Source: Minisyncoccia bacterium (GTDB taxonomy: Bacteria; Patescibacteriota; Minisyncoccia; Phycocordibacterales; UBA9973). From it: a stretch of 64,000 nt of DNA. A program made the translations under genes and the position numbers. This document shows, in pieces, positions 4,370-61,607 of this stretch. Location of the stretch: assembly GCA_041737125.1 (NCBI GenBank), contig JBGSSJ010000011.1, positions 33,568 to 97,567 of the forward strand. Reading direction: 5' to 3'. The notes beneath the pieces were generated by a model, which was given only the letters and a program-made list of their open reading frames with translations, was not told the DNA's origin and made no database searches. The stretch's first letter is position 1. Every line of letters starts with the position of its first letter.

Positions 4370-5989
4370 ATGAGTAAATTAAAATACATTGCCCTCTTTA
4401 TCCTTTTAGGTTCTACTGGATTTGCTTTTGGTTATTTTGCATCACAAACTATGACAGATACAAATGTAAAGAATCAAAGAGCTCAAGTTATACAAGAAGA
4501 GGTAAAAATACCTGAGCCTCCAAAAATAACAAAAATATCTTTCGTAGGAGATATGATGTTTGATCGAAGTGTTCGCACATCAGTGAATAAAAACTTCAAA
4601 GGAGATTATAATGAACTCTTTATCCACCTCAAAGAACTTGCAAATTCAGATATATTATTTGGCAACTTAGAGGGCCCAGTATCTGATGTCGGTAACAATG
4701 TCGGTAGTAAATACTCTTTCCGTATGGATCCACTAGTCCCTTCTACACTAGTGAATGCAGGCTTTGACATAGTGTCATTTGCTAACAATCACGTCGGTGA
4801 CTGGAATGTAAAAGCATTTGAAGATACTTTAAAAAGATTAGGTGAAGTAAATTTGAAACAAACAGGAGCCGGTATGAACAAGACGGAAGCTGAACAAGTA
4901 ACAATAATAGAACGCAATGGAGTTAAATTCGGCTTTATCGGATTCTCTGATGTAGGACCGGCATGGATGGAAGCGAAGGAAAACAAGTCTGGTATACTGC
5001 TCGCCAATAATCCAAGATTTAAAGAAATAATAAGTAATGCAAAACAAAATGTAGATGTATTAATTGTATCTTTCCACTGGGGCGATGAATACAAAAAGAT
5101 TCACAATAAAAGACAGGAGACACTAGCACATAGTGCGGTAGATAGTGGCGCAGATATGGTCATCGGCCACCATCCTCATGTCATGCAAGATATAGAAGTA
5201 TACAATGGTGCACCTATTGTCTACTCACTTGGTAACTTTATATTTGATCAATACTTCTCTGTAGATACAATGCAAGGCATGCTATTTGAGGCGACATTCG
5301 AAGACAAAACTTTGAAAGATACAAAAAGTAGAATCATTACTCTCAATAAGAAGTACCAACCAGATGGTATTTATGAAAGTGTTGAAGAAGCCGCTCTCGC
5401 AAACGCTTGCCCGAAACCTACAAAGATATATGAGGATTATTCATACCTCGGTGTCGATCAAGGCGTAGCAATTCCTGACACAACATACACACCGTCTGAT
5501 TTGCGACCAGTAAAGAAAGATATATCTACTGGAAGTTTCTGTTTGAAGAAGGAAGCAGTGACAGCAATAGAAGAAATGTTTGCGGATGCAAAAATGGATG
5601 GCTATATGTTGAAAGTATCCTCTGGCTTTCGTGATTATGGAACACAAGTGACAATACTTAATAATAATCTAAAAAATACTAATCAAAATGTTTCGACTTC
5701 CGTTGCGAAAGCAGGCTACTCCGAGCACCAGCTAGGTACAGCAATTGATATAACTAGCCCCTCAGTGAACAATGCTGGTGCTTCGAAGATATTCGAAGGA
5801 ACGAAAGAGGCAGCGTGGCTTGAAACCAACGCCCATAAATATGGTTTCATCCAAAGCTATCCTAAAGGCAAAGAAGATATCACAGGCTACATATACGAAC
5901 CATGGCATTATAGATATGTAGGTAAAGACCACGCAGAAGCAATCACAAAAAGTGGCGAAACAATAAATCAATATTTAAAAAATCTATAA
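4370..5989 (+). CDS. membrane-anchored fusion: CapA/PgsA-type metallophosphatase domain + C-terminal M15 (VanY-like) D-Ala-D-Ala carboxypeptidase domain
   Basis: N-terminal TM; 'SFVGDMMFDR', 'FANNHVGDW', 'GHHPHV' (CapA/calcineurin-like); C-terminal 'SGFRDYGTQ', 'YSEHQLGTAIDI', 'EPWHYRYVG' (LAS/M15 zinc-peptidase motifs). Confidence 0.7.
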   Translation: MSKLKYIALFILLGSTGFAFGYFASQTMTDTNVKNQRAQVIQEEVKIPEPPKITKISFVGDMMFDRSVRTSVNKNFKGDYNELFIHLKELANSDILFGNLEGPVSDVGNNVGSKYSFRMDPLVPSTLVNAGFDIVSFANNHVGDWNVKAFEDTLKRLGEVNLKQTGAGMNKTEAEQVTIIERNGVKFGFIGFSDVGPAWMEAKENKSGILLANNPRFKEIISNAKQNVDVLIVSFHWGDEYKKIHNKRQETLAHSAVDSGADMVIGHHPHVMQDIEVYNGAPIVYSLGNFIFDQYFSVDTMQGMLFEATFEDKTLKDTKSRIITLNKKYQPDGIYESVEEAALANACPKPTKIYEDYSYLGVDQGVAIPDTTYTPSDLRPVKKDISTGSFCLKKEAVTAIEEMFADAKMDGYMLKVSSGFRDYGTQVTILNNNLKNTNQNVSTSVAKAGYSEHQLGTAIDITSPSVNNAGASKIFEGTKEAAWLETNAHKYGFIQSYPKGKEDITGYIYEPWHYRYVGKDHAEAITKSGETINQYLKNL

Positions 5990-5992
5990 TAA

Positions 5993-6032
5993 AAAACCCT
6001 TACTTATAAGTAGGGGTTTTTTATTTAGCGTA
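5993..6032. terminator. bidirectional intrinsic terminator between convergent genes
   Basis: aaaaaCCCTTACTTAtaAGTAGGGGtttttt hairpin with flanking A/T runs. Confidence 0.6.
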
Positions 6033-8297
6033 AACGCTGGCGTCTTCGAGGTGGATAGATAGAAGCTTCGATACTCCTGCGGAGTCCATAGTCACACCGT
6101 AGAGGACATTCGCACGAGACATTGTCTCCCTATTATGAGTCACAACTATGAGCTGTGAATACTTGGATAGATTCTCAAGCATGTTACCGTACTTTCTGGA
6201 ATTTGCTTCATCGAGTGCTGCATCTGTCTCATCGAGAACAAGGAATGGTGGAGGGTTTACTTGAGATATTGCGAATAAGAGTGCGATAGAAGTAAGGGAC
6301 CTCTCACCACCGGATAGCATATGCAGGTCTTTCACTTTCTTGTGAGGGAGAGCTATGTTTATCTCTATTCCGCGTTCGAATCCGAGCTCTTCTTCCTCGG
6401 CTTCATCACTCTCATCTACGAATTCATCTTCATCCTTTGAAGAGATTCTAGACTTCTTATGTTCCATAACTACAGAGAGGAATGCAGAACCTCCTCCGAA
6501 CATTAGAGCGAAGAATTCTTGGAATTGTTTATTTATCTTCTCTACACCTGTTTTGAATTCTTCATCAAGGGTATCTTTCAGTTCTTGGATTAACAATCGC
6601 AAAGATTCCACACTCTTCGTCAAATCCACAATCTCACGGCCGAGGAATAAGTCGCGCTCTTCTGTATCTTGATACTCTTTGAGCACATCGGCTCCCGAGC
6701 TTGAGCCTATGTCTTCGAGCTTTATCTTTATGCGTTCTATCTTACGACGAAGTTCATCTTGAGTTGCGCGCACTACTTCATAAGTCACTCGCTCACTTGC
6801 ATAGCCTATGACTTCCCTCCCTATCATAGCTCCTGCTTCAGCAAGCTCCATCTCATATGCATTCTTTATGAGTAGTAGCTTCTCTTCTTCGAAGTGCAGT
6901 GAATGCATACTTGAAGTCACTTCATTCTTCTCGCGAAGTGCTTCATATAATACACGCTCACCTTGGCGTAAATTAATCTGCATTTCTTGCTCGCGAATAC
7001 GCAGGTCGGATATCATAGAGAGTATAGACTTCTCGTTCTCTGTTATCTTACTCAGGTCCATATTTATCTTATTACGGACTTCTTTCATCTCTTCATATTC
7101 TTTACTTATCTTGCTGTCTATCTCACTCTCTCTATTATCTACCCCTGAACTATCTTTACCTAGGGAGTTTATAACTTCCCTCATAGCGTGAAGTACTTTA
7201 GTTATGTCATTCTTATCTTCAAGAAGTAGAGCTTGCTCAATTTTATCTTTGATACTTGCCACAGCTTCCCTCCACTCAGACTCTTTAATTACTTTTTCTG
7301 TTGTAGTATTCGCACGCGCACGTTCACGCTCGATGGAATCGATAATCCCTTCTATGCGCCCAAGCTTACGTACTAGCTCATCCTTCATTGAGCGCAAATC
7401 TACAAGCTTGATCTCGTATTCTTTAATCTGTTTTATATGTTCGCTCTCTGTTTGGTCTTTATTATTATCTTTCTGTAATTCTTCTATGTGGGAATCAAGC
7501 GACTTCATCTTCTCTTCTAAGTCATGGCGAAGTGAATGTAGTCTCTTTGTTTCTATGTCTATATATGTAGCCTCACCTGCGAAATATGTCTTATACATAT
7601 CTCGAAGCTCTTCCCTCATATCACGAGCTTTCTCTACGATAGCGACCTGCTTCTTGAGGAATGCTAAGTGTGGCGCTATCTCCCGACGAGAAGCTTGTAC
7701 TTCCTTCATATTCAAAATTGTTTTCTCTAATTTCCTTTCTGATTCACGAATTCGGTACTGATAAATCTTAAGACCTAATGCATCTTCAATCATAGCTCTA
7801 CGGTCTTTATTCGAAGCATTAAGTACTCTATCTGCTTCACCTTGAGAGATAATATGGTGACCAGAGCTACCAATGTTCACAGAGGAAAGTAAATCTATAA
7901 TATCTTTTAACCTTACTTCTGTATTATTGATACTGTACTTATTCGCCCCGTCAGCAAAAACTTCACGAGAAATAGATATCTCATCATAATCAAGTGATAC
8001 TCCAAGTCCGCTATTCGTAAAAGAAAAAATCTTTTTGCTATTATCAAAAGTAATAGTTACACTAGCGCGGTTTGATGATGGAGTATTTTTGGAACCTTTA
8101 AATATTAAATCCACCCCTCCTTTACCACGGAGTGACTTCATAGATTGCTCACCTAATACGAAGCGTATAGATTCAACAATGTTTGATTTACCAGAGCCAT
8201 TAGGCCCCACAACTGCAGTAATAGGAGAGAGGAATGAGACAGAGCTCTTCTTCCCGAATGATTTGAAACCTAGTAGTTCGATAGATTTCAATGTCAT
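6021..8297 (-). CDS. smc: SMC-family chromosome-partition ATPase, short form (758 aa; no obvious hinge)
   Basis: N-terminal Walker A 'AVVGPNGSGKSNIVESIRFVLGEQ'; long coiled-coil middle; C-terminal signature 'LSGGERSLTSIALLFAI...LVLDETDAALD'; start overlaps rnc stop (rnc-smc operon). Confidence 0.7.
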   Translation of the reverse strand: MTLKSIELLGFKSFGKKSSVSFLSPITAVVGPNGSGKSNIVESIRFVLGEQSMKSLRGKGGVDLIFKGSKNTPSSNRASVTITFDNSKKIFSFTNSGLGVSLDYDEISISREVFADGANKYSINNTEVRLKDIIDLLSSVNIGSSGHHIISQGEADRVLNASNKDRRAMIEDALGLKIYQYRIRESERKLEKTILNMKEVQASRREIAPHLAFLKKQVAIVEKARDMREELRDMYKTYFAGEATYIDIETKRLHSLRHDLEEKMKSLDSHIEELQKDNNKDQTESEHIKQIKEYEIKLVDLRSMKDELVRKLGRIEGIIDSIERERARANTTTEKVIKESEWREAVASIKDKIEQALLLEDKNDITKVLHAMREVINSLGKDSSGVDNRESEIDSKISKEYEEMKEVRNKINMDLSKITENEKSILSMISDLRIREQEMQINLRQGERVLYEALREKNEVTSSMHSLHFEEEKLLLIKNAYEMELAEAGAMIGREVIGYASERVTYEVVRATQDELRRKIERIKIKLEDIGSSSGADVLKEYQDTEERDLFLGREIVDLTKSVESLRLLIQELKDTLDEEFKTGVEKINKQFQEFFALMFGGGSAFLSVVMEHKKSRISSKDEDEFVDESDEAEEEELGFERGIEINIALPHKKVKDLHMLSGGERSLTSIALLFAISQVNPPPFLVLDETDAALDEANSRKYGNMLENLSKYSQLIVVTHNRETMSRANVLYGVTMDSAGVSKLLSIHLEDASVYAK

Positions 8298-8298
8298 A

Positions 8299-8994
8299 TT
8301 AGTCTAGCCAATCTTTAATTTCGAGTGCCGACCTAGCTGCTGCTTGCTCTGCTTCTTGTTTACTTTTGCCTTTACCAGTTGCTACTTGTTCACTTCCGAA
8401 GAATACGCCCACAGTAAAGTGCTTGTCGTGATCAGGACCTACTTCATTTATAACTTTATATACTGGGGTAATGCTCAAATATTCTTGGGACTTCTCTTGG
8501 ACCAAACTTTTCGCATCGCGCCATAGCTTCTGCGCTACTATCATATATATTTTGCCGAATAAAGTTTTCGATATGAACATGCGTGCTTGATCATAGCCTT
8601 GGTCTATGTAAAGTGCACCTACGTATGCTTCATAGGTATTGGCAAGTATATAGCTTCGTGCTCTTCCTGCGTCTTTGGCTTCACCCTTTGAAAGCAATAG
8701 GAAATCATTCATACCTAGCTCTTGAGCAACTTCACCTATGATAACTGCATTCACTAGAGCAGAGCGATAAGCCGTAAGCTCGCCCTCATCTCGATCTGGG
8801 TATTTGTTGTATAAGTAATCAGTCACTATAAGCTCAAGCACTGCGTCACCCAGGAATTCAAGGCGCTCATTATGAGAGAGTTTTGAACCTGTATTTTCAT
8901 TTATATAGGAACGGTGAATAAAAGCTTGCTCAAGAAGCTTCTTATCTTTAAAAGTTATTTTAGTTTTCTCTTCAAATTTGGATAAATCTACCAT
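8299..8994 (-). CDS. rnc: ribonuclease III
   Basis: RNase III signature 'HNERLEFLGDAVLEL'; C-terminal dsRBD; 231 aa. Confidence 0.9.
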   Translation of the reverse strand: MVDLSKFEEKTKITFKDKKLLEQAFIHRSYINENTGSKLSHNERLEFLGDAVLELIVTDYLYNKYPDRDEGELTAYRSALVNAVIIGEVAQELGMNDFLLLSKGEAKDAGRARSYILANTYEAYVGALYIDQGYDQARMFISKTLFGKIYMIVAQKLWRDAKSLVQEKSQEYLSITPVYKVINEVGPDHDKHFTVGVFFGSEQVATGKGKSKQEAEQAAARSALEIKDWLD

Positions 8995-8995
8995 A

Positions 8996-9898
8996 TTATT
9001 TATTCGTTAATATTTCTATAGCCTTCGTTAAAAGTGGGATCGTGTTATCGTACATTTTAAGATTCGCAATTTCCTCAATTGGGAACCATTTTGTATCATC
9101 TAAACCTCCAGACATATTCTTAAGAACCAAATCTCCATATGGAGCTTCTGCAAGAAAGAATACTACTTGCTTCCGGATTTTACCTTGCTGTGGATGATTA
9201 GCAATATACTCATTGCGACCGAGTTCTTCTTTGATAATTATATCAAGACCCATTTCTTCCTTTATCTCACGGATGGCACCAGCCTTTTCATCTTCACCAT
9301 CTTCAATGCCTCCTTTTGAAAGTGTCCAGTATCCGAATACATCGTGAACGAATGCAAAGTAAATATTGCCTTCGTGAAGAGAATAGACCACAGCGCCTGC
9401 TTTCTTCTCTATTGGGAATTTACTTGGATCCGTTTCGAATTGTTTATTCTTCTTTTTATTTACATCATCTTTGCCTGGCTCACCGAGCTCTTTGTAGACA
9501 CCACCAAGTACGCCATTTATGAATTTACTGGAATTCTCCCCACCGAAACTTTTGGCAAGTTCGATAGCTTCATTGATAGCAACTTTCGGTGGAACTTGAG
9601 TGCGGTCACCAAAAAGTAGCTCATATAAACCGATACGTATAATATTGCGGTCCACAATAGAAATCTTCTCTATCGGCCAGTCTGGAGCTGCTTTCTCTAT
9701 AATCTCATCTATGATTGCCTGCTTCTTTATAACGCCAAGAAAAAGATCACTCATAAAAGATGAGTCATCAAGACCTGGGCCAAATTCCTCTATATTACGA
9801 TCAAGCATTTGCTCTGGACTTGTGTCTGTGCTAACACCAAAATCCCACTCGAAGAGTGTCTGCAGAACAATTGAACGTGAAAGGTGCCTGTTTGCCAT
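8996..9898 (-). CDS. nusB: NusB antitermination factor fused to C-terminal NUDIX hydrolase domain
   Basis: N-terminal NusB fold motifs ('RIGLYELLF...VAINEAIELAKSFGGENSSKFINGVLGGV'); C-terminal Nudix box 'GGIEDGEDEKAGAIREIKEEMGL'; 300 aa. Confidence 0.75.
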   Translation of the reverse strand: MANRHLSRSIVLQTLFEWDFGVSTDTSPEQMLDRNIEEFGPGLDDSSFMSDLFLGVIKKQAIIDEIIEKAAPDWPIEKISIVDRNIIRIGLYELLFGDRTQVPPKVAINEAIELAKSFGGENSSKFINGVLGGVYKELGEPGKDDVNKKKNKQFETDPSKFPIEKKAGAVVYSLHEGNIYFAFVHDVFGYWTLSKGGIEDGEDEKAGAIREIKEEMGLDIIIKEELGRNEYIANHPQQGKIRKQVVFFLAEAPYGDLVLKNMSGGLDDTKWFPIEEIANLKMYDNTIPLLTKAIEILTNK

Positions 9899-9918
9899 AG
9901 TTTGTGGAGTTACTAGGT

Positions 9919-9965
9919 TCTAGTTTCTAGGGACTAAATATAGCGCCCAAGAACTAACACCTAGA
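9919..9965. promoter_or_regulatory. 11-bp inverted repeat (tagtttctagg / cctagaaacta) with ~28-nt GC-richer loop between rpmF and nusB
   Basis: seen directly in sequence; position suits attenuator/terminator downstream of rpmF. Confidence 0.3.
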
Positions 9966-9967
9966 AA

Positions 9968-10186
9968 CTAACTTTTCTTAGCTTTCTTTTTAGCTTGCTT
10001 CTTCTCTACTTTTTTAACAACGTCTACAACCTTGCGTCCTCTGTAAAATCCACAGTGTGTGCAGATTACATGAGTCTCCTTCGCTTTCTGACAGTTTGAA
10101 CAAAGTCCAAAAGTCTTCGCTTTCAGAGCGTGGTGGCTTCGGCGGTTACCAGTATGAGCACGTGTATGTCGCATTCTTATTACCAT
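9968..10186 (-). CDS. rpmF: 50S ribosomal protein L32 with Lys-rich C-terminal extension
   Basis: 'RRSHHALK...CSNC...CTHCGFYRGRKVV' fits bL32 zinc-ribbon pattern; GCTATACT box 6 nt upstream of ATG. Confidence 0.75.
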   Translation of the reverse strand: MVIRMRHTRAHTGNRRSHHALKAKTFGLCSNCQKAKETHVICTHCGFYRGRKVVDVVKKVEKKQAKKKAKKS

Positions 10187-10221
10187 TCATATAGTATAGC
10201 TATTTCTCGGAAATATGCAAA

Positions 10222-10232
10222 TGTGATATATT
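10222..10232 (+). promoter_or_regulatory. extended -10-like box TGTGATATATT immediately upstream of thrS ATG (10240)
   Basis: identical 11-mer precedes trmD; ~7 nt from start codon, implies leaderless/short-leader mRNA. Confidence 0.4.
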
Positions 10233-10239
10233 GTTATAT

Positions 10240-11982
10240 ATGGAAAACACAGAACACCTATCCCACATACGACATACTCTGGCTCACCTAACCGCCGCGG
10301 CAGTTCGAGCTCTATACCCCCATGCTCAAAATGCAATTGGTCCTACAATAGACAATGGGTTCTACCAAGACTTTGATATGGGTGAAATAAAACTCTCTGA
10401 TTCAGATTTGCCTCGCATAGAAGAGAAAATGAAAGAAATTCTTAAATCTTGGAGCACATTCCAAAAAAAAGAAGTGACTAAAGATGAAGCTTTAGAAGAA
10501 TTTTCTTGGAATCCATATAAATGTGAACTTATCGCTGAGTTCGCAGGTGAAAACAAAACACTTACCTTCTACACTAATGGTGAATTCGTTGACCTCTGCA
10601 AGGGCGGCCATGTTGAAAATGCAAGAGAAATAAAACACGATTCATTCAAGCTCGATAAAGTCGCTGGTGCTTACTGGCGTGGAGACGAGAAGAACAAAAT
10701 GCTCACTCGTATATATGGACTCGCATTTGAAAATAAAGAAAAATTAGATTCTTATATTCTGCAGATAGAAGAAGCAAAGAAGCGCGATCATAAAAAACTT
10801 GGAATAGAACTAGATTTATTTACATTCTCTGATCTTGTAGGACCTGGTCTTCCTCTCTGGACACCAAAAGGAACTCTAGTACGTAATCTACTTGACGCTT
10901 ATGTATGGGAACTTCGTAAAGAAAGAGGCTACGATAAAGTAGAGATTCCACATATAACCAAGAAAGATTTATATGAAAGAAGTGGCCACTGGGATAAATA
11001 TAAAAATGATTTATTCCGTATTACTACTCGTGAAGGACACGAGTTCGCAATGAAGCCAATGAATTGCCCTCATCACACACAGATATACGACCGCAAACAG
11101 TGGAGCTATCGCGAACTTCCACAACGATATGCAAACACAACTACATGCTATAGAGATGAGCAATCAGGTGAACTTTCCGGATTATCACGAGTAAGAGCAT
11201 TCGCTCAAGACGATGCTCACGTATTCTGTCGTATTTCTGATGCAAAAGGAGAAATACAAAAAATATGGGATATTGTTCACATATTCTATAAATCACTAGA
11301 CTTAGTTCCCTATCTTCGTCTGTCACTCAGAGACCTAACACAACCAGATAAATATCTAGGTAACCAAGAGCACTGGGATAAGGCAGAAAAAATATTAAAA
11401 GAAGTAGCAATAGAAAATAAGACAGAATACTTTGAAGCTCCAGGTGAAGCAGCTTTCTATGCGCCAAAGCTCGACTTTATGGCAAAAGACTCAATAGGAA
11501 GAGAGTGGCAAGTTGCTACGATACAGCTTGATGTGAACATGCCTGAGAGGTTTGATCTTTCATGTATCAATGAAAAAGGAGAAAAAGAGCGTATTGTTAT
11601 GATACACGCAGCTATCATGGGTTCTATAGAAAGATTCATGTCTATTCTTATTGAACACACAGCTGGAGTATTCCCTACTTGGCTCTCTCCTGTACAAGTA
11701 GCAATTATCCCTGTACGTGATGAACATATAGATGAAACCAGAAAGATAACACAGGCACTTTTAGAGAATGATATTCGTATTGAGCACTATGATTACAATG
11801 AGAGCTTAGGTAAACGCATTCATGCGGCCAAGAAAATTAATACCCCGTATGTCATCATCATTGGTGATAAAGAAAAAGAATCGGGCATGCTAACTATAGA
11901 GAAACGTGATGGGACAAAAGAAACAAAAACTTTAGAGGACTTTATAAAAGACATCTCTACAGAAATTAAAAACCGCTCATAA
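10240..11982 (+). CDS. thrS: threonyl-tRNA synthetase, short form lacking N-terminal TGS/N2 domains
   Basis: editing/second-additional-domain HxxxH 'HIRHTLAHL', class II core 'DHKKLGIELDLF', anticodon-binding C-terminus; ORF could start at TTG 10231 but ATG 10240 sits right after -10 box. Confidence 0.9.
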   Translation: MENTEHLSHIRHTLAHLTAAAVRALYPHAQNAIGPTIDNGFYQDFDMGEIKLSDSDLPRIEEKMKEILKSWSTFQKKEVTKDEALEEFSWNPYKCELIAEFAGENKTLTFYTNGEFVDLCKGGHVENAREIKHDSFKLDKVAGAYWRGDEKNKMLTRIYGLAFENKEKLDSYILQIEEAKKRDHKKLGIELDLFTFSDLVGPGLPLWTPKGTLVRNLLDAYVWELRKERGYDKVEIPHITKKDLYERSGHWDKYKNDLFRITTREGHEFAMKPMNCPHHTQIYDRKQWSYRELPQRYANTTTCYRDEQSGELSGLSRVRAFAQDDAHVFCRISDAKGEIQKIWDIVHIFYKSLDLVPYLRLSLRDLTQPDKYLGNQEHWDKAEKILKEVAIENKTEYFEAPGEAAFYAPKLDFMAKDSIGREWQVATIQLDVNMPERFDLSCINEKGEKERIVMIHAAIMGSIERFMSILIEHTAGVFPTWLSPVQVAIIPVRDEHIDETRKITQALLENDIRIEHYDYNESLGKRIHAAKKINTPYVIIIGDKEKESGMLTIEKRDGTKETKTLEDFIKDISTEIKNRS

Positions 11983-11996
11983 GCGGTTTTTAATTT
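11969..11996 (+). terminator. hairpin aaccgct-cata-agcggtt + T-run overlapping thrS stop codon
   Basis: stop TAA lies in loop; followed by ttttt. Confidence 0.5.
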
Positions 11997-12007
11997 TCCC
12001 CTTAAAT

Positions 12008-12051
12008 AAATGGCTGTTAATTTCCGCATATGCGGAAATTAACAGCCATTT
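12008..12051. terminator. 44-bp perfect palindrome (aaatggctgttaatttccgcatatgcggaaattaacagccattt) between convergent thrS and 12068..12526
   Basis: perfect inverted repeat, bidirectional terminator candidate. Confidence 0.6.
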
Positions 12052-12067
12052 AAAATATTATTAAAAT

Positions 12068-23544: not shown

Positions 23545-26500
23545 TTAATATTCTGAGACTGTAGTATTATCAGTATTTTCTTCTATTATAAGTGGTGCTT
23601 CCACAGTTACTTTTGGGCTCGGAACAGGCGTACTCTCCTCTATTATAGGTGCGGGTTCATCTGGAGAAGTTACTTCCTCAATAATTATTTCCTCAGTTAC
23701 TATTTCGGGTACTAGTTCAGTAGAGGGATTTTCCGGTGATGGGACATCATCTTCTTGGGGTACTTGTTCTAGAGGAGCTTCTGTAGGTATTTCTATGTCG
23801 AGTCCTTCTACTAGACTCTCTACAATTTTAGGATCTTTTACGCCTAATGCTACCCAAGAGAAGCGTATATCCCGAGGTGCTTTCTTATTCAAGAATATTG
23901 TGAACCCTGTTTGATCTTTCTCTACCACTAGGTGGCGTACATCTTCGAAGAAGAATGCTTCAGCAGTGGCATCATCCATATTATCTGTAACCTCAAATGT
24001 AATATTTGTGGTTATCACAGGCGTGGTCACATAAGGCTCATCGAATACTACTCGCACTCGTCGGTCTTCCTCTTTTATAAGAGCAAAACCTGCTGTATCT
24101 TTGTTAAATATTGGTGGGATAGTGAACTCTGTCTGTGCACCGAAGACTACAGAGCCATCAAATGTAGTACTATTGGCAAAGAATGAAAGTCCACTAAACT
24201 GTGCTTTGCCTTCGAAAGTACTCTCTCCTGTTGCTTTGAAATTTGCTGTAGTTACTGATGTGAGTGCATCAAATGCATTTGCTCCGAGCAATGTTTCAAG
24301 TGCAGTGATTCGCTCAATCAGCGCATCAAAACCAGCAATTTTAGTAGCTTCAATTTCTTGTGCAGTAATTTTACCATTAAATACTGCATTTCCGAGTGCA
24401 TCAATAGTCATAACCGCAGCATCTTCACTATTTTTCTTTACAGAGAAGATTCCATTATTAAGAACAAGCGCGAGTGATCCATCTATTCCCCCAGTGAGCT
24501 GGCTTGTCACTACAGTATCAGCAATAAGTGTAGGTGTAAGAATTTCAAACCCAGCAGCAATTCTATCTGTGAAGAAGCTCTCTAGTGGAAGAGCGTTTGT
24601 CTCCTTGTCATCACGTGTTGCACGCAAGAATGACATGATAGACCATTGTGTTCCAAGCTCTGCTGTAAGTCCATCAACTGAAACATGGCCGTCTTCTATA
24701 GAACCATATTCTTGTGCAAGAATCTCTACATTTTGACCAAGTGATTCTCCAAGCCCAACAAAGAGCATAACATATCCGCACTGTATTCCTGTTGATGATT
24801 GCACTTGTTCTCCTTGCGCTTCACCTTCTACACGCTCTCCACCTACCCATGGACCTTCAGGAAGAGCAACATTTTCAAGTGCTGGAAGAGGGGCATCGCA
24901 TGAAGTCATTCCGTATGGCTCATTGAGTACACGACCTATCACTGCTCCGGCTGAAGTCGCGCGCATTGCATATCCTTCACGGGAAGACGAGGTGAGGAGG
25001 TCACCTACCTTTATAGGGCCATTTTCTGTCGTTACCTTAACAGGTACACGACCGGAGAGCGCAACAGCGTATGCATTTTCTGCTACAGGTCCTAAAATAA
25101 GTCCTGGTCGTGTGGAAATAACACCGAGCAGATTCTTTTGATACCTTCGAGAAGACTTACCAATTCCAGCTTCTTGACTTGGTTCAATGGAGACGACATC
25201 GCCTGCCTCAAGTGTTTCATTTGAGTAATAGTACTCAGCAAGGTCGGCTCCTTGACCGAGACCAAGCACATCTTGTGTGGCCCCAAAGAGACCACTAGCC
25301 ACCAAACTCATTCGAACATCCTCAAGAGCAAGGAGCGTATCTGCTTGGAGTTGTTTTATACTTACATCTTTTCTTTCTACTCTGATACCTGTACCAGTGG
25401 CAAACAAGATAGTATCCGTATATATAGCTATTGATTTTATGTCATCAGAACCAGTACCACTCCACGTAGTACCAAAATCATCTTCTTCAATACCAGAATC
25501 ACTACTATGCACTTCTGTTTTAATTCCTCCTGCCCCAGCATTTGTAAATGTTGAAATTCCTCCACCATCTGCCCCATCATCAGTACCAACATACAAACTA
25601 CGAGTCTTGTTAATTTGTGTAGGGGCATCAACAGCAATAGAGGTTACGTTATTTGTAGATCCATAGAGCTTAGAAGGAGAAACTCGGTAATCACTTGTTG
25701 CATCTGGTGTGACCGACCATGCAGGCGCCACAGTAAAGGCAGTTGCATCATTTGAAATAATATTTCTTGTTTGTCCAGCCCCAGTTCCTCCAGTGATTTC
25801 AACAACAAGCGAAGTAAATGAATTTGGAACATAGGTTGCAGTCGTACTTCCTATTGTCGTTCCACTGAAAATATCAGCATTCTCAACGGAGGTTTGTGGT
25901 CGTATGAGATGTGTTCGTCCATCAAGGAAGCGTCTATTTGCAGAAGCAGAAACGGTACCTGAAGATGTCGTTGCACCTGCACTCCACGTGAATTCATCAA
26001 TTTCTCCATCCCAGAAACTATCCCCTGTGGCGCAGTTAGCCCCAGTACATCGGCCACCAATGGTGAGCACTTGTGCTGCGTCAAGTGTTGCTGTTGCTGC
26101 AAGAGCTGTATCACACGCAGCTGCCAAGCGTCCGTCTATATACATACATAAGTCTGTGTCAGTATTCGTAAGCAAGAAATGATGCCACTGACCATCGTTC
26201 CATGTTCCAGAAGAAGTCAAACCGTCATCCATCGACAAAGTTCCCACAGTTGTCCATGTCCCATCATCATCAATACCTGCAGTGATAGTTCCTGTAGTTG
26301 TCATACCAGCATAGATACAAGCGGCAGCTGTAGGAGTTGCAGGAGTATAACATCGCTCAAAGAGCACATCAGCTGCTGCGGTCGTTGAATGTTTAAACCA
26401 AAGCGAAACCGTAAAGGAAGTTGCTGCAACGTTGTTGTCTGTATCACTGTCACACGTGCCGTCCGCATTGGCATCACTACAGAGGTACGAGTTATTATTG

Positions 26501-29500
26501 AAATTCACTGACCCTCCTCGAATACCATTACCTCCAAATGTTGGTGCTGTTGCGCCTGCTTGGTCAAGTGGATTTCTGGTCGTCCCCGTATTTCCAACCG
26601 CACTATTTGTAGATGTCGCACCTACTGCATCATCAAAAAGGTACGCTGAACGGACTCCTCCATTCATATACGGAGTTGCACTATCCTTCGTTGTGATCTT
26701 TGACCATGAGGCATTCGCAAGTGCACCTCCTGATGTGTGCACTTCTGCAAGACCTTGGTTTGTACCGACAAACACAATATCACCTGAGTCAATCTGTCCC
26801 GCTGCAGCAGCTTCCCTTGCAGCAGAACCACGCTCAATCACTGCAAGAGCGCTCGGTGAAGTCGAAATAGTGGGAACAGCCCCCTCAAGTGTAATCGGCG
26901 TATTCCCGGCGAGTGTTTCGTCATACCATCGTGTAGGAGTTCCGTTTGCCTGTGTTGTTATCACCGTATCTACTCCGCGCCATTCTTCAAGTTGAGCGCG
27001 CGTTTCATTCGTCGCATACATACGACCACGCTTAGTCATGTACACCTGATTGTAGTCATCATTTGTTGCATCAGAATAGTTGATGACCTTTCGTGCTCCC
27101 ATATTGATAACAGACACTCCAGAGTCAGTAGCAGCTGCAATAATAGTGACTCCAAGCATTGGTCCTCCTTGAGAATCAACTGGCGCAATAAGTGTACCCG
27201 CTCTTCCTTCCATGGATCCAGTCTGAACATTTACTGACACATCATTGACTGTGTTGTTGATAATAGCAAAACCTGTCTCTGCATTAGCAGCATACGTGGC
27301 AGTTGAATTTCGATTGCCAATATTTATATCTGCTTGAGTCCTGTTTGTAGTGTTATATCTATATAGAACATCTTGTTTAAAATCAAATGCATATAAACCT
27401 GTAGCAGAAGCCCCGTTTGTACCAACATAAATAACACCATTTTGAGCAGTTACTCCAGAGGGGTTGTTGTTAGTATCTGCACCGAGTGCATAGGTGCCCG
27501 CTTGAGTAAACTTCATCCAAAGTGAATTATCAGCACTGTCAAATATATACAGTCCATCAGCAGTCGTAGCAATAATAGCCTTACGAGGAAAGGCTGAACT
27601 TCCACAACGATCATCAGTTGAGATACTACATGCATCTCCTGCCCCATCGTCTTTAGCCTCAGTTGCCCAAGATCTTTGCATCATCTCTAGAGAGTTACGC
27701 CACTCACCTGCATCAACATCAACAGATGTATCGTATATAAATGTATCTATAACCCCAGTGAGACTCCGTGCAATAGTTCCCCCTTTTACAATAAGGTCTC
27801 CATATACAAGTGCATTACCACGACTTATAGCGGTACCGACTTGGAAAATATCGTTGGTTGTTGAAGATCCATCAGAGAGAACAAGTGTTCCGTTATCTGC
27901 AAGTGTCATTTGTGGAGTTGCATCAATAAATCTGATGTCGCTATCCCATCCAGAACCAATCACAAGTGCATTCTCTGTTGCTGCAGTACCTGTGATGTTT
28001 GCGATATTTAAACCATTAAATGTCTCATCACCTGATGGTGTGTTTACTGGAATGAGTGTAATGTTGAGTCCTGAGTTTGTGTTTGTTGTTCCGTTTCCGA
28101 CTTCCATTGCAATAGAGAGCCCATCGACTCCGTCAGTGACTATCCCTGTTGTTCCACCAGTTAAATTTACTACCATCGAGTCGGCGGTAGGTATAACATT
28201 GTTCGCAGTGTTCTGTATAGTGATAGAGCCCAAGGTTGAAGTGTTGCCGGAACTATCTATCTGGAAGAGGTCACCGTTACCAACAGTAAAGAGTGATGCG
28301 GGTGATGCATCTCCGATACCGACGTTACCATTATTAAAAATAAAACCATTACTAGGACTATCACCATTTACTGCTAAATACACACTAGAACCATTACCAC
28401 TAAAATCACCTATGTAAACATTATCTAAGGCTTCAAGATAAATATTTCCACTGGACGCTCCATTCGTAACGTCTAAAATACCTCTAGGAGCTATAGTTCC
28501 TATACCTACCCTCCCGCCCATATCTGGCACCAACAAGGCATAATTATCCGTCCCTCCTGTTGCACTTGCATATAACGCTACATTAGTAGATGACGTTCCT
28601 GTTTTAACATTGGTAAAATAACCACCATAGGTCGTTTGAGTTGAAGTAGCGTTTGCACCCGACTGTGCGACTTCAAATATTTTCTGTGCATTTGATGCTG
28701 CAGCAGTAGAAGTAGACGAGAGTTTGAGTCCTGTTGCGCCCGCGAGTGTATTCCATTGCCATTCTTGAGTGTAGTCCGCATTGTTGATAGTGTTGGTAGC
28801 TCCTGCTGCAGAGAGACTAGAAAGTGCAACCGCTCCTCCACAAGAAGCAACTGAAAGCGTTCCTGATCCGTTTGACTGGAGACATCCAGATGCATCTGCA
28901 GCAGGAAGAGTCCATGTGTATGACGCAGTAACAGCAGCGGGAGCTTGGAGTGCTGCAAAGTCTGTCCCTCCTCCTGTTTCGACAAATCGCAAATCAGCCC
29001 CTGCAAAGAGTGATGTGTTCCCTGATCCATCTACTTGGAAGAGGTCGCCGGAGCCGACAGTGAAGAGTGAAGCGGGTGATGTGTCTCCAATCCCCACATT
29101 CCCACTATTAAGTATCCTCATCGCTTCAGTGGCTCCGTTGTTCCCCGTCTGGAAAATAATATCTGCACCTGTTGTTCCCACTCCTGAAGTTGAGCGAAGC
29201 GTTAGTGGAGATGTAGTAGTGGTACCTCCGATAACAAGTGGTGTGGTGATGTCTGTGGTGAATGTTGGAGATGTAGAGAAGACAGCAAGGCCAGAACCAG
29301 TTTCGTCTGTGAGAGCGCTTGCTAAGTTTGCAGATGACGGAGTAGAGAGCCATGTAGAAATTCCACTACCGAGTGTGGTTACAGAAAGTGCACCTGTTCC
29401 TCCTGATGTAGTAACAAATCCATTCGTAGAAAGTCCTGAGAATGTGATACTACCACTTGATGTGATACCTGTGGCTGCAATAATTGCTCCTGTACTATCT

Positions 29501-32500
29501 ACTTGAAATTGAGATGTGGAGCCGACGGTGAACGCTGAGTCAGGTGTGACATCTCCGATACCCAGATTTGCTGCTTCATTCCTAAAATAACTATTACCGT
29601 TTGCATTCAAAACAATTACAGCAACTCCATTTCTTTGAATATCAATACGACCTTGATCTGAGTTTCCATTATAAAGCCTGACTACTCTTCGTGATGAGTT
29701 TGCCCCTTCGACATACAATTCACTCCCTTTAGAAAGTCTGACATTGCCTCCCACATCAAGTTTCTCTGCAGGTGAAAGACCAATACCGACGTTTCCACTA
29801 TTAAGTATCCTCATCGCTTCCGTCGCTCCATTGTTCCCTGTTTGGAAAATAATATTTGCACCTGTTGTTCCCACTCCTGAAGTTGAGCGAAGTGTCAGTG
29901 GTGATGTTGTAGTTGTTCCTCCGATAATAAGTGGAGTGGTGATGTCTGTGGTGAAGGTTGGAGATGTAGAGAAGACAGCAAGGCCAGAACCAGTTTCGTC
30001 TGTGAGTGATCCTGCAAGGTCTGCAGAGGTGAATGATCCTGTCGCTGTACCATAAAGTGTACCTGATGTTGGGAGCGTAACATTTGTTGTACCTGTAGAG
30101 GTAAATGTAGTATTAAATGCACCAGAGGTAGTGAGCGCTCCTCCGAGGGTAATTATTTTACCTGCACTATTGTTCACACCGGTACCTCCGTTTGTTGGAG
30201 AGAGAAGTCCAGAGACAGCAGACGACGAAGCGATGTTGATAGCTCCAAATGCAAGTGCAGTACCTCCCCCATTAAGACGAAGGACTTGGTTCCCTGTACC
30301 TACGATATCAGCTACATCTCCTGTTGTGTTTGTTTCTCTACCGATGACTGATACTCCTGCAGACTGTCTCAATTTCCCGTCAGTAACAGTATTTGCATCG
30401 ATAGTCATTACTGTTCCTGTTCCTGATACTGTTATATCGCCGTAATCAAGATCAGAGAGCCCACCACTCACCGCGCTCCAGCTTCCATCTCCCCTTAGGA
30501 ACGTTGATGCACTAGGTGTCCCCGTGATAGCTGATGCAAAGATAGGAAGTGTGTTTGATGCAATCTTTTCAAAAACGCCAGTTCCAGTATTACGAGTGAT
30601 GAGATCGTATGAGCCTGCTGAAGTTGTAGGTGTTGTGGAGAGCGTGAGAGTTCCGGATGATGTGATACCTGTGGCTGCTGTAATAGCACCACCAGAAGTG
30701 ACTTGGAATTGTGCAGCAGAGCCTACGTTGAATAATGAAGTTGAAGTAGTAGAACCAATAGTGACATTACCACTTGCCTCAATTCTCATTTTTTCACTTC
30801 GCGTAGTAGAGTTATTCGCAGTTGTCTCAAATCGGAGACTTGTTCCATATGCAGAACCATCACTCCACGCTTGAGAAGTATATGCAGCAATACCAGCAGT
30901 AGAGCGCAGTGGTTGTGCCCCCGAAGAAGACCCTCCAAACAATACGCCCCCCAATCGATCAAGTGAAGACATTGCTCCCCCGTCATTACTATAGAGCCCT
31001 ATGAGTGCGCCAGCAAAAGCACCTGATGCGCCTCTACTCTCACCGGCAAACACAAGACCTGACGTAGCCCCGCTGGACGAAACAGATACAGATTCAGTCC
31101 CCACAACAGAATCGAACGATGAGTGTGTTGCACCGAGCGTTAGTTTGGATACAGGACTTGCTGTCCCTAATCCCAACCTATCATTCGTATCATCCCAAAA
31201 GAAATTCGCATTGTCTTGAACGATTGTTGTACCGTTTGAGAATAGTACTGAACCGGTAGTTAGTGATGGAAGTGTGAACTTTGCATTGATTTGTGATTGT
31301 ATTCCTGAAGTCACCCCTTTGACATATGATATTTCTGTGAGTGATGGATATGTTACAGTTGCAAGTGAACCTAGAGTATTTGTTCCACTCCAGTAGGTCA
31401 GTTCGTTTGCAACCCCTGTACCAACGGAGGTGAGGTATGTACTTGAATCTAGTGATCCATCACCTTTAATAAAGTCTGTACTGGCACCTATACCAGTGGA
31501 AGTTAAGTTCTTGGATGCATCAGTGAATACAACCTTTGATGCTGTGAGGCCAGAGAAGTTGATGGTTCCTGATGATGTGATACCGGTAGCCGCGGCGATG
31601 GCACCGGAGGAGTTGACTTGGAAGAGGTCGCCAGAGCCGACAGTGAGCATCGCTGCAGGAGTAGTGTCGCCAATACCAACGTTACCATCACCACCTATTC
31701 TCATTCTTTCTCCATCTCCAGCACGGAACTGAAGAAAACTTGTCGCATCAGCAGTACCTGAACCATTTCCAGAAACAGAAGTATAACCAGAGTTCGTGCC
31801 GAAATATAAATTCTGGTTAAACCCAACACCTACAGATCCGGTAAATGTACCCGCACCAGTAACAGTAAGCGGAAAAGTCGGCGTGTTCGTCCCGATACCG
31901 ACGTTTCCAGCATTTACAATGAGCCCATAGTTAGCAGTTGTAGCTCCTGATGCATCTAAGTAGAGAGCTACGTTTGTACCTGAGGTAGCATTTGTTTTCG
32001 TGTTTGATATTTGCGCACCGTACGTAGTGATAGCATTCGTAGATGTTGCACCGGAAGTGAGGATATTCAAACCAGTTTGTGACGCGCCTGCGTCGGTGCC
32101 TGAGATTTGAATATCAATTAATCTTCCCGATGTAAGACTTGATGAAGCAAGATATGCACCAGTACCTGTAGTAAGGGAGTTGAAGTTTCCTACTAATGCT
32201 GATGCTGTGGTAGCTTGGGTAGTGTTTGCTGAAGTAAGTGCAATTGTGCCTGTAGTAGTGAGTCCCGTTGCTGCCACAATAGCACCGGTCGAGTTCACCT
32301 GAAATGCATCACCTGAGCCCACAGTAAGCATGGACGCTGGTGATGGGTCACCGATACCCAAAGATGCTGCAGCGTTTACAAAATAGCTATCTCCACTTGC
32401 ATTAAGTCGGATATTAACAGCTCCGTCTCTTTGGATATCAATCATTCCTTGACTCAACCCTCCACTGTTATACAAACGAACAGCGCGTCGTGCAGGAATA

Positions 32501-61530: not shown

Positions 61531-61548
61531 GCAACTGCCCACACAAAA

Positions 61549-61590
61549 GAAACAACCGCCAGACGATAATAATTCGTCTGGCTGTTTTTT
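61549..61590. terminator. intrinsic terminator gccagacga-ataataa-ttcgtctggc + T6
   Basis: seen directly; between convergent 61039..61530(+) and 61608..62573(-). Confidence 0.65.
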
Positions 61591-61607
61591 ATTTTATAAC
61601 GATTTTT

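Follow-up and report, generated by a model that had tools for sequence, protein, structure and literature searches.

A NusB protein with a C-terminal Nudix domain, encoded between rpmF and rnc–smc in Patescibacteria

Few bacterial transcription factors are as highly conserved as NusB, which is normally a protein of ~140 residues without further domains. The open reading frame (ORF) described here, from a Minisyncoccia bacterium, encodes a 300-residue protein in which a NusB domain is followed by a Nudix domain. It lies on the minus strand at positions 8996..9898 of a stretch of 64,000 nt (assembly GCA_041737125.1, contig JBGSSJ010000011.1, positions 33,568–97,567 of the forward strand), which is referred to as the window and to which all coordinates below belong.

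In E. coli, the rRNA-maturation defects of nus mutants are suppressed by rnc mutations, and it has been proposed that the Nus factors tether BoxA to RNA polymerase (RNAP), letting the RNase III stem form (PMC4807359). Among Nudix enzymes, RppH was first known as a diadenosine-polyphosphate (ApnA) hydrolase and is reported to act on RNA with a 5'-triphosphate (5'-PPP) or an Np4 cap, removing Np4 caps and 5' pyrophosphate (PMC8833179, PMC7044304). The published Nus–RNase III and RppH work makes a role at the end of the rRNA leader plausible for a Nudix domain carried by NusB, without testing it. The reading that we prefer, at a probability of about 0.4, is that the NusB half docks on S10 and BoxA while the Nudix domain binds a nucleoside-polyphosphate group, which it would hydrolyse where its catalytic box is intact and only bind where the box is dead.

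NusB and Nudix domains in one continuous protein

The ORF and its parts are as follows.

8996..9898, minus strand: nusB::nudix fusion ORF, 300 residues plus a TAA stop, with an ATG start and without an internal stop
9488..9898, minus strand: NusB domain, residues 1–137, seven helices (PF01029, TIGR01951, AlphaFold2, Foldseek)
9404..9487, minus strand: linker, residues 138–165, starting with LGEPGKD and continuing with a lysine-rich segment predicted to be disordered
8999..9403, minus strand: Nudix domain, residues 166–300 (from ~163), an alpha/beta/alpha sandwich (PF00293, AlphaFold2, Foldseek)
9245..9313, minus strand: Nudix box GGIEDGEDEKAGAIREIKEEMGL, residues 196–218, read from the sequence

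The original prediction, made from the DNA alone, was of a single 300-residue ORF comprising a complete NusB and a canonical Nudix box. The frame is indeed continuous; its strand, which the prediction did not give, is minus. The N-terminal half is a genuine NusB at the equivalog level. The Pfam NusB model (PF01029) matches residues 7–136 with an E-value of 4.6e-34 (118.1 bits against a cut-off of 23.1), and the nusB equivalog TIGR01951 matches residues 4–137 with 123.2 bits against a cut-off of 88.35, covering model positions 2–130 of 131. This half aligns end to end with residues 5–128 of E. coli NusB and residues 7–134 of T. maritima NusB. The AlphaFold2 (AF2) model places the seven NusB helices across residues 4–138 with a predicted local distance difference test score (pLDDT) that is mostly >85, and a Foldseek search of the PDB with this half returned the E. 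coli NusB101–S10 complex (3imq; target-normalized TM-score, TMt, 0.87), 1tzt (0.81) and 1eyv (0.80). The N-terminal arginines Arg4 and Arg8 and the C-terminal signature of the NusB half are at least 90% conserved. Solved stand-alone NusB chains contain 139–156 residues, so the extra ~160 residues are real added sequence.

Residue 122 of the fusion (positions 9533–9535) is an asparagine where E. coli NusB has Asp118, as in the NusB101 (D118N) mutant. T. maritima NusB likewise has an asparagine at this position, and the match of the fusion protein to 3imq is slightly better than that to wild-type NusB.

The C-terminal half passes the Pfam NUDIX model (PF00293; residues 189–283, E-value 4.9e-13, 49.7 bits against a cut-off of 21.1). 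The sequence GGIEDGEDEKAGAIREIKEEMGL fits the pattern GX5EX7REUXEEXGU at all specified positions (G196-x5-E202-x7-R210-E211-I-K-E214-E215-M-G-L), as had been claimed, and the key residues Gly196, Glu202, Arg210, Glu211, Glu214 and Glu215 are all canonical in the window protein. No second NusB or Nudix match was found within the 64-kb window. The two domains are joined by a linker of ~25 residues, in which the motif GEPGK is at least 90% conserved across 79 species. The full-length AF2 model, calculated from an alignment of 42 sequences (31–85% identity), has a mean pLDDT of 89.5 and a predicted TM-score (pTM) of 0.54, with pLDDT <50 over residues 143–155, and AF2 gave no confident relative orientation of the two domains (pTM 0.54 for the window protein; 0.54–0.56 when the model of a divergent member, P0239, is included). 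The models are thus suggestive of two confident domains on a flexible tether of ~25 residues.

The join recurs widely. An identical 300-residue protein (P0001) is present in NCBI and 119 further clusters carry both Pfam domains; all of the 120 best clusters at 90% identity (80–100% identical, 298–311 residues) contain both. Their source assemblies come from NCBI, JGI, ENA and Logan and the organisms are given as Patescibacteria, Paceibacterota or Nomurabacteria. The database names examined are simply 'NusB', except for one JGI entry ('8-oxo-dGTP diphosphatase'), so that the extra domain is easily overlooked. Relatives are encoded at no fewer than 366 loci of GTDB species representatives from Patescibacteria (Paceibacteria/Parcubacteria). 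The best 80 of these loci (60–86% identity) are labelled Nomurabacteria, Yonathbacteria, Lloydbacteria, Paceibacteria, Minisyncoccia or Parcubacteria group, and the ORF is continuous and full length in 78 of them; one of the remaining two (L033) is cut by a contig end and the other (L045) contains a stop at the domain boundary. The join persists down to ~31% identity. When 50%-identity representatives were searched exhaustively with the Nudix half, 199 sequences were obtained at E <=1e-10, and among the best 150 of these 53 also carry NusB as judged by a local hidden Markov model (HMM) search. These findings mark the fusion as old and as widespread within the Paceibacteria/Parcubacteria class. 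The literature searched for a NusB–Nudix fusion, including in Patescibacteria, Parcubacteria and the candidate phyla radiation (CPR), contained none.

Many of the loci (L004, L005, L007 and others) are titled 'uncultured Candidatus Saccharibacteria bacterium' despite at least 80% identity to Nomurabacteria or Paceibacteria proteins and a shared gene order. These titles look like a generic or mistaken taxon label.

An artefact in which mis-assembly, a missed stop codon or a frameshift joins two genes would be in keeping with the boundary stops that two genomes (L045 and L087) do have. Both of these stops, however, are single-base changes in an otherwise intact frame, the ORF is continuous here and in 78 of the 80 GTDB loci, and the join is found in assemblies from NCBI, JGI, ENA and Logan. 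Recurrence in hundreds of independent assemblies establishes that the fusion is real and leaves such an error with a negligible probability. A whole class of the CPR, comprising hundreds to thousands of species with minimal genomes, thus carries a second domain on NusB and has kept it across deep divergence, which suggests a component of the rRNA transcription and maturation machinery that is absent from model bacteria. The fusion is lineage-defining and solidly real; its functional implication is testable but unproven, and what follows on the role of the domain is offered as a hypothesis.

The Nudix half and the erosion of its catalytic box

In the AF2 model, strands and helices spanning residues 163–299 form the alpha/beta/alpha arrangement (pLDDT 83–97 over residues 161–300), and the top 40 Foldseek matches of this half in the PDB are all Nudix proteins. 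The nearest fold is that of the Aquifex Ap4A hydrolase aq_158 (3i7u; TMt 0.89, r.m.s.d. 2.0), followed by mycobacterial MutT1/Rv2985 (annotated as 'Nudix diadenosine polyphosphatase'), the T. thermophilus Ap6A hydrolase Ndx1 and the Nudix domain of NrtR; further matches include the C. elegans and human (NUDT2) Ap4A hydrolases and Chlamydia CT771. Among the ApnA-hydrolase structures other than 3i7u, TMt is 0.85 for 1vc8, 0.76 for 1ktg, 0.77 for 4mpo and 0.70 for 3u53. The best phmmer matches in the PDB are also Ap4A hydrolases, 1kt9 (1.1e-06) and 3i7u (1.7e-06). In the alignment with the C. elegans enzyme (1kt9), Lys195 of the segment WTLSKG and Tyr283 fall on Lys36 and Tyr121, which we take to be its phosphate-binding lysine and adenine-stacking tyrosine, and Tyr231 is offset by six residues from Tyr76. 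By sequence and by predicted structure, the Nudix fold is nearest to the ApnA hydrolases. Among the substrates that the original prediction had put forward, Np4A or an RNA cap fits better in view of these closest relatives, and an NAD cap or ppGpp fits less well.

The box was compared in a near set of 79 species-level relatives (60–86% identity) and in a diverse set of 42 sequences, of which 35 are not close relatives. All six box residues are canonical (GEREEE) in 54 of the 79 near relatives (68%); the other 25 are altered, with E214K in eight, 'KR' or 'KK' in place of 'RE' in seven and other changes in the remainder. GEREEE occurs in 11/42 sequences of the diverse set, and in only five of its 35 non-close members. 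Glu211, the metal-binding glutamate of the RE pair, is replaced by Val, Lys, Ile, Ala, Arg or Ser in most divergent clusters; this residue presumably corresponds to NUDT2 Glu58, which is mutated in PDB entry 4ijx ('E58A'). Within the box only Glu215, a metal ligand, is at least 90% conserved. Conservation of the catalytic box among orthologues is thus not upheld, although the box is canonical in the window protein itself. The coupling of antitermination to hydrolysis that had been proposed for this protein is accordingly retained in part: hydrolysis by the Nudix domain is plausible in the genome and clade of the window, judging from the intact box, but it is not a family-wide property, the box being altered in 25/79 near and 30/35 divergent relatives.

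The domain that surrounds the box has been kept. The pairwise identities of the Nudix and NusB halves are 0.33 and 0.38 (diverse set) or 0.64 and 0.78 (species set) among members lacking Glu211 or Glu215, and 0.54 and 0.62 or 0.65 and 0.75, respectively, among canonical members, which is essentially an equal ratio. Asp186, Trp191, Thr192, Lys195, Tyr231, Gly265, Trp271 and Tyr283 are nearly invariant, including in members without Glu211 or Glu215. In the box-dead member P0239 the Pfam NUDIX score falls to 19.6 bits, under the gathering cut-off, and the AF2 model shows the same fold (pLDDT 92.9; TMt 0.87 to 3i7u). This conservation indicates that the Nudix domain of box-eroded members is still under purifying selection. 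As the box is eroded while the domain is conserved, the family-wide role does not require canonical catalysis; this role is probably the binding of a ligand or of an RNA 5' end beside NusB. An intact box in one clade, with an eroded box and a conserved fold elsewhere, provides a natural experiment that separates binding from catalysis.

An eroded box with a kept fold and kept candidate pocket residues is also the pattern of Nudix-derived ligand sensors. It would suit a different arrangement, which we regard as doubtful, in which the Nudix domain acts like that of NrtR, binding a free dinucleoside polyphosphate or alarmone (with slow hydrolysis where the box is intact), and its occupancy tunes the assembly of NusB on S10/BoxA, thereby linking rRNA output to the nucleotide or stress state of the cell. 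The NrtR Nudix domain with ADP-ribose (3gz8) appears at rank 11 among the Foldseek matches (TMt 0.67), and the best matches are enzymes that act on free ApnA. NrtR nevertheless matches less well than the ApnA hydrolases, and the disordered linker and the lack of a confident AF2 interface (pTM 0.54–0.56) offer no evident allosteric path.

That catalytic residues are dispensable in most lineages would also be expected if the Nudix fold were a structural accessory, a protein–protein scaffold, with no nucleotide ligand, in the complex that transcribes and processes rRNA. SuhB, an enzyme-fold protein that is integral to the Nus complex, is a precedent (PMC6614797, PMC6614801, PMC4807359). We nonetheless consider a pure scaffold unlikely: Lys195, the candidate phosphate-binding lysine, and Glu215 keep at least 90% conservation also where the box is eroded, and a canonical box is kept in 68% of near relatives.

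Gene neighbourhood and a possible role at the rRNA leader

The genes that accompany the fusion, all of them on the minus strand, and the spacer that precedes it are as follows.

9968..10186, minus strand: rpmF, ribosomal protein L32 (Pfam Ribosomal_L32p)
9908..9969, minus strand: imperfect RNA hairpin with 29-nt arms and a 4-nt loop (inverted repeat I1)
8299..8994, minus strand: rnc, RNase III, 231 residues (Pfam Ribonucleas_3_3, Ribonuclease_3, dsrm)
6021..8297, minus strand: smc, a short form of 758 residues (Pfam SMC_N, residues 3–743)

The predicted position directly upstream of rnc–smc is borne out: rnc starts 1 nt past the stop codon of the fusion and smc starts 1 nt past that of rnc. 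rpmF lies 69 nt upstream of the fusion, and the gene beyond smc is convergent, so that smc closes the co-directional run. The order L32, fusion, rnc, smc is found in all 80 related loci as far as the contigs reach. L32 is upstream in 79 of them (one is without a detectable L32), and rnc is directly downstream in every locus that extends past the fusion. P0239, which is 34% identical and lies on a 930-kb contig, keeps the full order, with gyrB nearby; a 38%-identical member retains L32, the fusion and rnc, and one divergent member has a different gene context. A scan of 5600..10500 for promoter and terminator consensus sequences gave nothing over the shuffle background.

The SMC of the window is 758 residues long, compared with ~1180 residues for a typical bacterial SMC, and this short length is kept across the 80 related loci. 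Other genes of the window are typical of the CPR (trmD, S16, RNase R, thrS, gyrB and pheST). A 539-residue ORF at 4370–5989 contains a PGA_cap domain (a capsule-synthesis-type metallophosphatase) and a VanY D-Ala-D-Ala carboxypeptidase domain. A giant ORF of 3249 residues on the minus strand at 23545–33294 lies in the sole region of the window where G+C is raised (0.44–0.46 versus ~0.39); its sole Pfam match is Laminin_G_3 (residues 2286–2443), and its product is probably a surface or adhesion protein.

The hairpin in the rpmF–nusB spacer runs from the rpmF stop codon to ~10–13 nt ahead of the nusB ATG and has a predicted free energy of -29.2 kcal/mol (z -4.1; none of 200 shuffles was equally stable). 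A hairpin is present in this spacer in most close loci, with an unrelated sequence in each. Near-perfect hairpins of 18–21 bp also occupy other short intergenic spacers of the window, including those of convergent gene pairs (1975–2017, 11983–12067, 1481–1536 and 61531–61607); several of them are without a clear U-tract, and they appear to be the usual 3'-end signal of this genome. The rnc leader of E. coli prompted the idea that the rpmF–nusB hairpin is a site of RNase III autoregulation; this finds no specific support, since equally long hairpins occur at other gene ends of the window. Given that comparable hairpins mark those ends, it looks like a generic terminator-like or 3'-end hairpin. 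nusB::nudix–rnc–smc may be transcribed by read-through from rpmF.

The preferred reading can be set out as a sequence of steps. The NusB half would do its usual job, binding S10 and the BoxA of the nascent pre-rRNA leader and so tethering the leader to RNAP. Within reach of the linker, the Nudix domain would bind a nucleoside-polyphosphate group, for which the 5' end of that leader, with its triphosphate or an Np4 cap, is the most plausible candidate. Where the box is intact, as in the genome of the window, the domain may hydrolyse this group as RppH or NUDT2 does, preparing the leader for processing or decay alongside the RNase III encoded next door; in dead-box lineages it would only bind. 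Binding would then be the role common to the family and catalysis a clade-specific addition.

A more specific and rather doubtful form of this idea makes the tethered Nudix domain a co-transcriptional 5'-end reader or decapping module within a Nus factor. In CPR bacteria such a module would link the state of the leader's 5' end to RNase III processing and to turnover of the leader. BoxA-docked NusB would bring the 5'-PPP or Np4 end of the leader to the Nudix domain, where an intact box would hydrolyse it and a dead box would hold it. If such a module exists, it would be the first RNA 5'-end-modifying activity to be found as a physical part of the antitermination machinery of bacteria. A domain that acts on leader 5' ends or senses ApnA would join non-canonical RNA capping or alarmone biology to ribosome biogenesis.

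Several observations weigh against the proposed binding and hydrolysis at the leader. Identity to the ApnA hydrolases is only ~27%. The RppH models NF001936 and NF001938 reach 28.9 against 118 bits and 22.1 against 116 bits, over residues 175–220 only, and the MutT1 8-oxo-(d)GTP phosphatase model NF052459 reaches 36.7 against 475 bits. Scores against the curated equivalog models, among them RppH, MutT1, NudI and MutT, all lie far under cut-off, so the substrate cannot be assigned by orthology; the fusion resembles, but cannot be filed under, the ApnA hydrolases, RppH or MutT1. The conserved Trp, Tyr and Lys residues could belong to the structural core instead of a ligand pocket. There is no rRNA operon or BoxA in the 64-kb window, where Rfam gave one tRNA only. 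Adjacency to rnc may in part reflect the ancestral rpmF...rnc–smc neighbourhood known from Bacillus, after loss of intervening genes.

The remaining adverse points concern split and stand-alone forms. Single-base in-frame TAA codons replace the codon for Glu137 in L045:4475-5362 (CAYUGY010000018.1) and that for Tyr135 in L087:542-1459 (JACCDV010735530.1), with the Nudix frame intact downstream in both; in L087 the gene calls are a separate NusB (133 residues) and Nudix protein (141 residues) between L32 and rnc. These stops imply that covalent linkage is not strictly required. The chance location of two stops within three codons out of 300 seems unlikely, and they could represent tolerated fission, readthrough isoforms or sequencing error. 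A stand-alone Nudix homologue of 150 residues with a canonical box and 44% identity (P0151, L088:3001-3453) lies among integrase, DNA methylase and Phage_rep_O-like genes and may be a phage- or mobile-element-borne copy.

These forms are relevant to an improbable alternative in which the fusion serves co-expression only: a housekeeping hydrolase of ApnA or other NTP derivatives would have been joined, as the genome was streamlined, to the essential gene beside it, and would be coupled to NusB neither physically nor functionally. The flexible linker without a predicted interface, the in-frame stops that separate the halves at their boundary, stand-alone relatives at ~35% identity (some in Bacillota) and the compactness of CPR genomes, evident here in 1-nt intergenic gaps, all agree with it. 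A housekeeping enzyme, however, should keep its catalytic residues, whereas most divergent fused lineages have lost them with the domain still under selection. The join moreover persists to ~31% identity in a conserved gene order, and the LGEPGKD junction motif is conserved.

Other candidates for free-standing Nudix genes were for the most part rejected. The high-identity 'Nudix-only' proteins P0130 and P0123 both begin at contig edges inside the linker, P0243 shares its cluster with a 294-residue member, and P0131 is a fusion broken by one in-frame TAA. Extended forms also occur. P0127 has an additional C-terminal match to Rho_N, a nucleic-acid-binding domain (28.8 bits against a cut-off of 24.9; the corresponding match in P0128, at 18.8 bits, is under the cut-off). 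P0262 (L085:3605-5338; 577 residues) consists of a long N-terminal extension with a weak cold-shock-domain match, a partial NusB and a Nudix domain. Its neighbours encode an NB-ARC NTPase, a DDE transposase and an HEPN_Swt1 protein; the context looks like a defence or mobile island, into which the NusB–Nudix module may have been co-opted.

Comparison with known systems

The NusB half shares the near-identical segment VP.KVAINEAIELAKSFG.E.S.KF.NGVL with the E. coli and T. maritima proteins. The fusion differs from E. coli-type NusB in its ~160 additional C-terminal residues (the linker and the Nudix domain) and from the usual nusB neighbourhoods in adjoining rnc.

With the ApnA hydrolases the window protein has in common the canonical box, the motif W-x-x-(P/S)-K-G before it and a C-terminal tyrosine that aligns with the adenine-stacking tyrosine, and these enzymes are its best matches in sequence (E ~1e-6) and fold (TMt 0.73–0.89). 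The differences are the identity of ~27%, a serine in place of proline in the motif, the fusion to NusB and the erosion of the box in most members of the family. MutT1 differs in having a histidine-phosphatase domain, which the fusion protein, ending at residue 300, is without. RppH and NUDT2 belong to the same superfamily and share the polyphosphate-bridge chemistry, which makes them a plausible working analogue for the tethered Nudix domain; the fusion is not itself a member of the RppH family (22–29 bits against cut-offs of 116–118). In Foldseek comparisons of the whole two-domain models, ~250 columns align with Dcp2 decapping enzymes with an r.m.s.d. of 10–15 Å. Dcp2 also has a helical N-terminal domain, regulatory in that enzyme, followed by a Nudix domain; the likeness is in domain order only and is not evidence of kinship.

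The systems closest in architecture are NrtR, RsmB/Sun and SuhB. In NrtR a Nudix domain is likewise joined to a nucleic-acid-binding domain, its degenerate-box Nudix domain is a ligand-binding module and its structure 3gz8 is a fold match. NrtR, however, carries a C-terminal winged-helix DNA-binding domain and represses at promoters, whereas the partner here is an elongation factor that binds RNA and S10, and many members, including the window protein, keep a canonical box. In RsmB/Sun a NusB-fold RNA-binding domain is joined to an enzyme, an rRNA m5C methyltransferase. The partner in the fusion is a Nudix domain instead: RsmB models reach 57.4 against 319 bits over the NusB part only, with no methyltransferase Pfam match, and the NusB half is of equivalog level whereas that of RsmB is only NusB-like. 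SuhB, also an enzyme fold, works in the E. coli Nus complex (PMC6614797, PMC6614801); its fold, that of inositol monophosphatase, is not homologous to the Nudix domain, and it is a polypeptide of its own that binds NusA and RNAP. RsmB, NrtR and SuhB are thus architectural or functional analogues and not relatives of the whole fusion.

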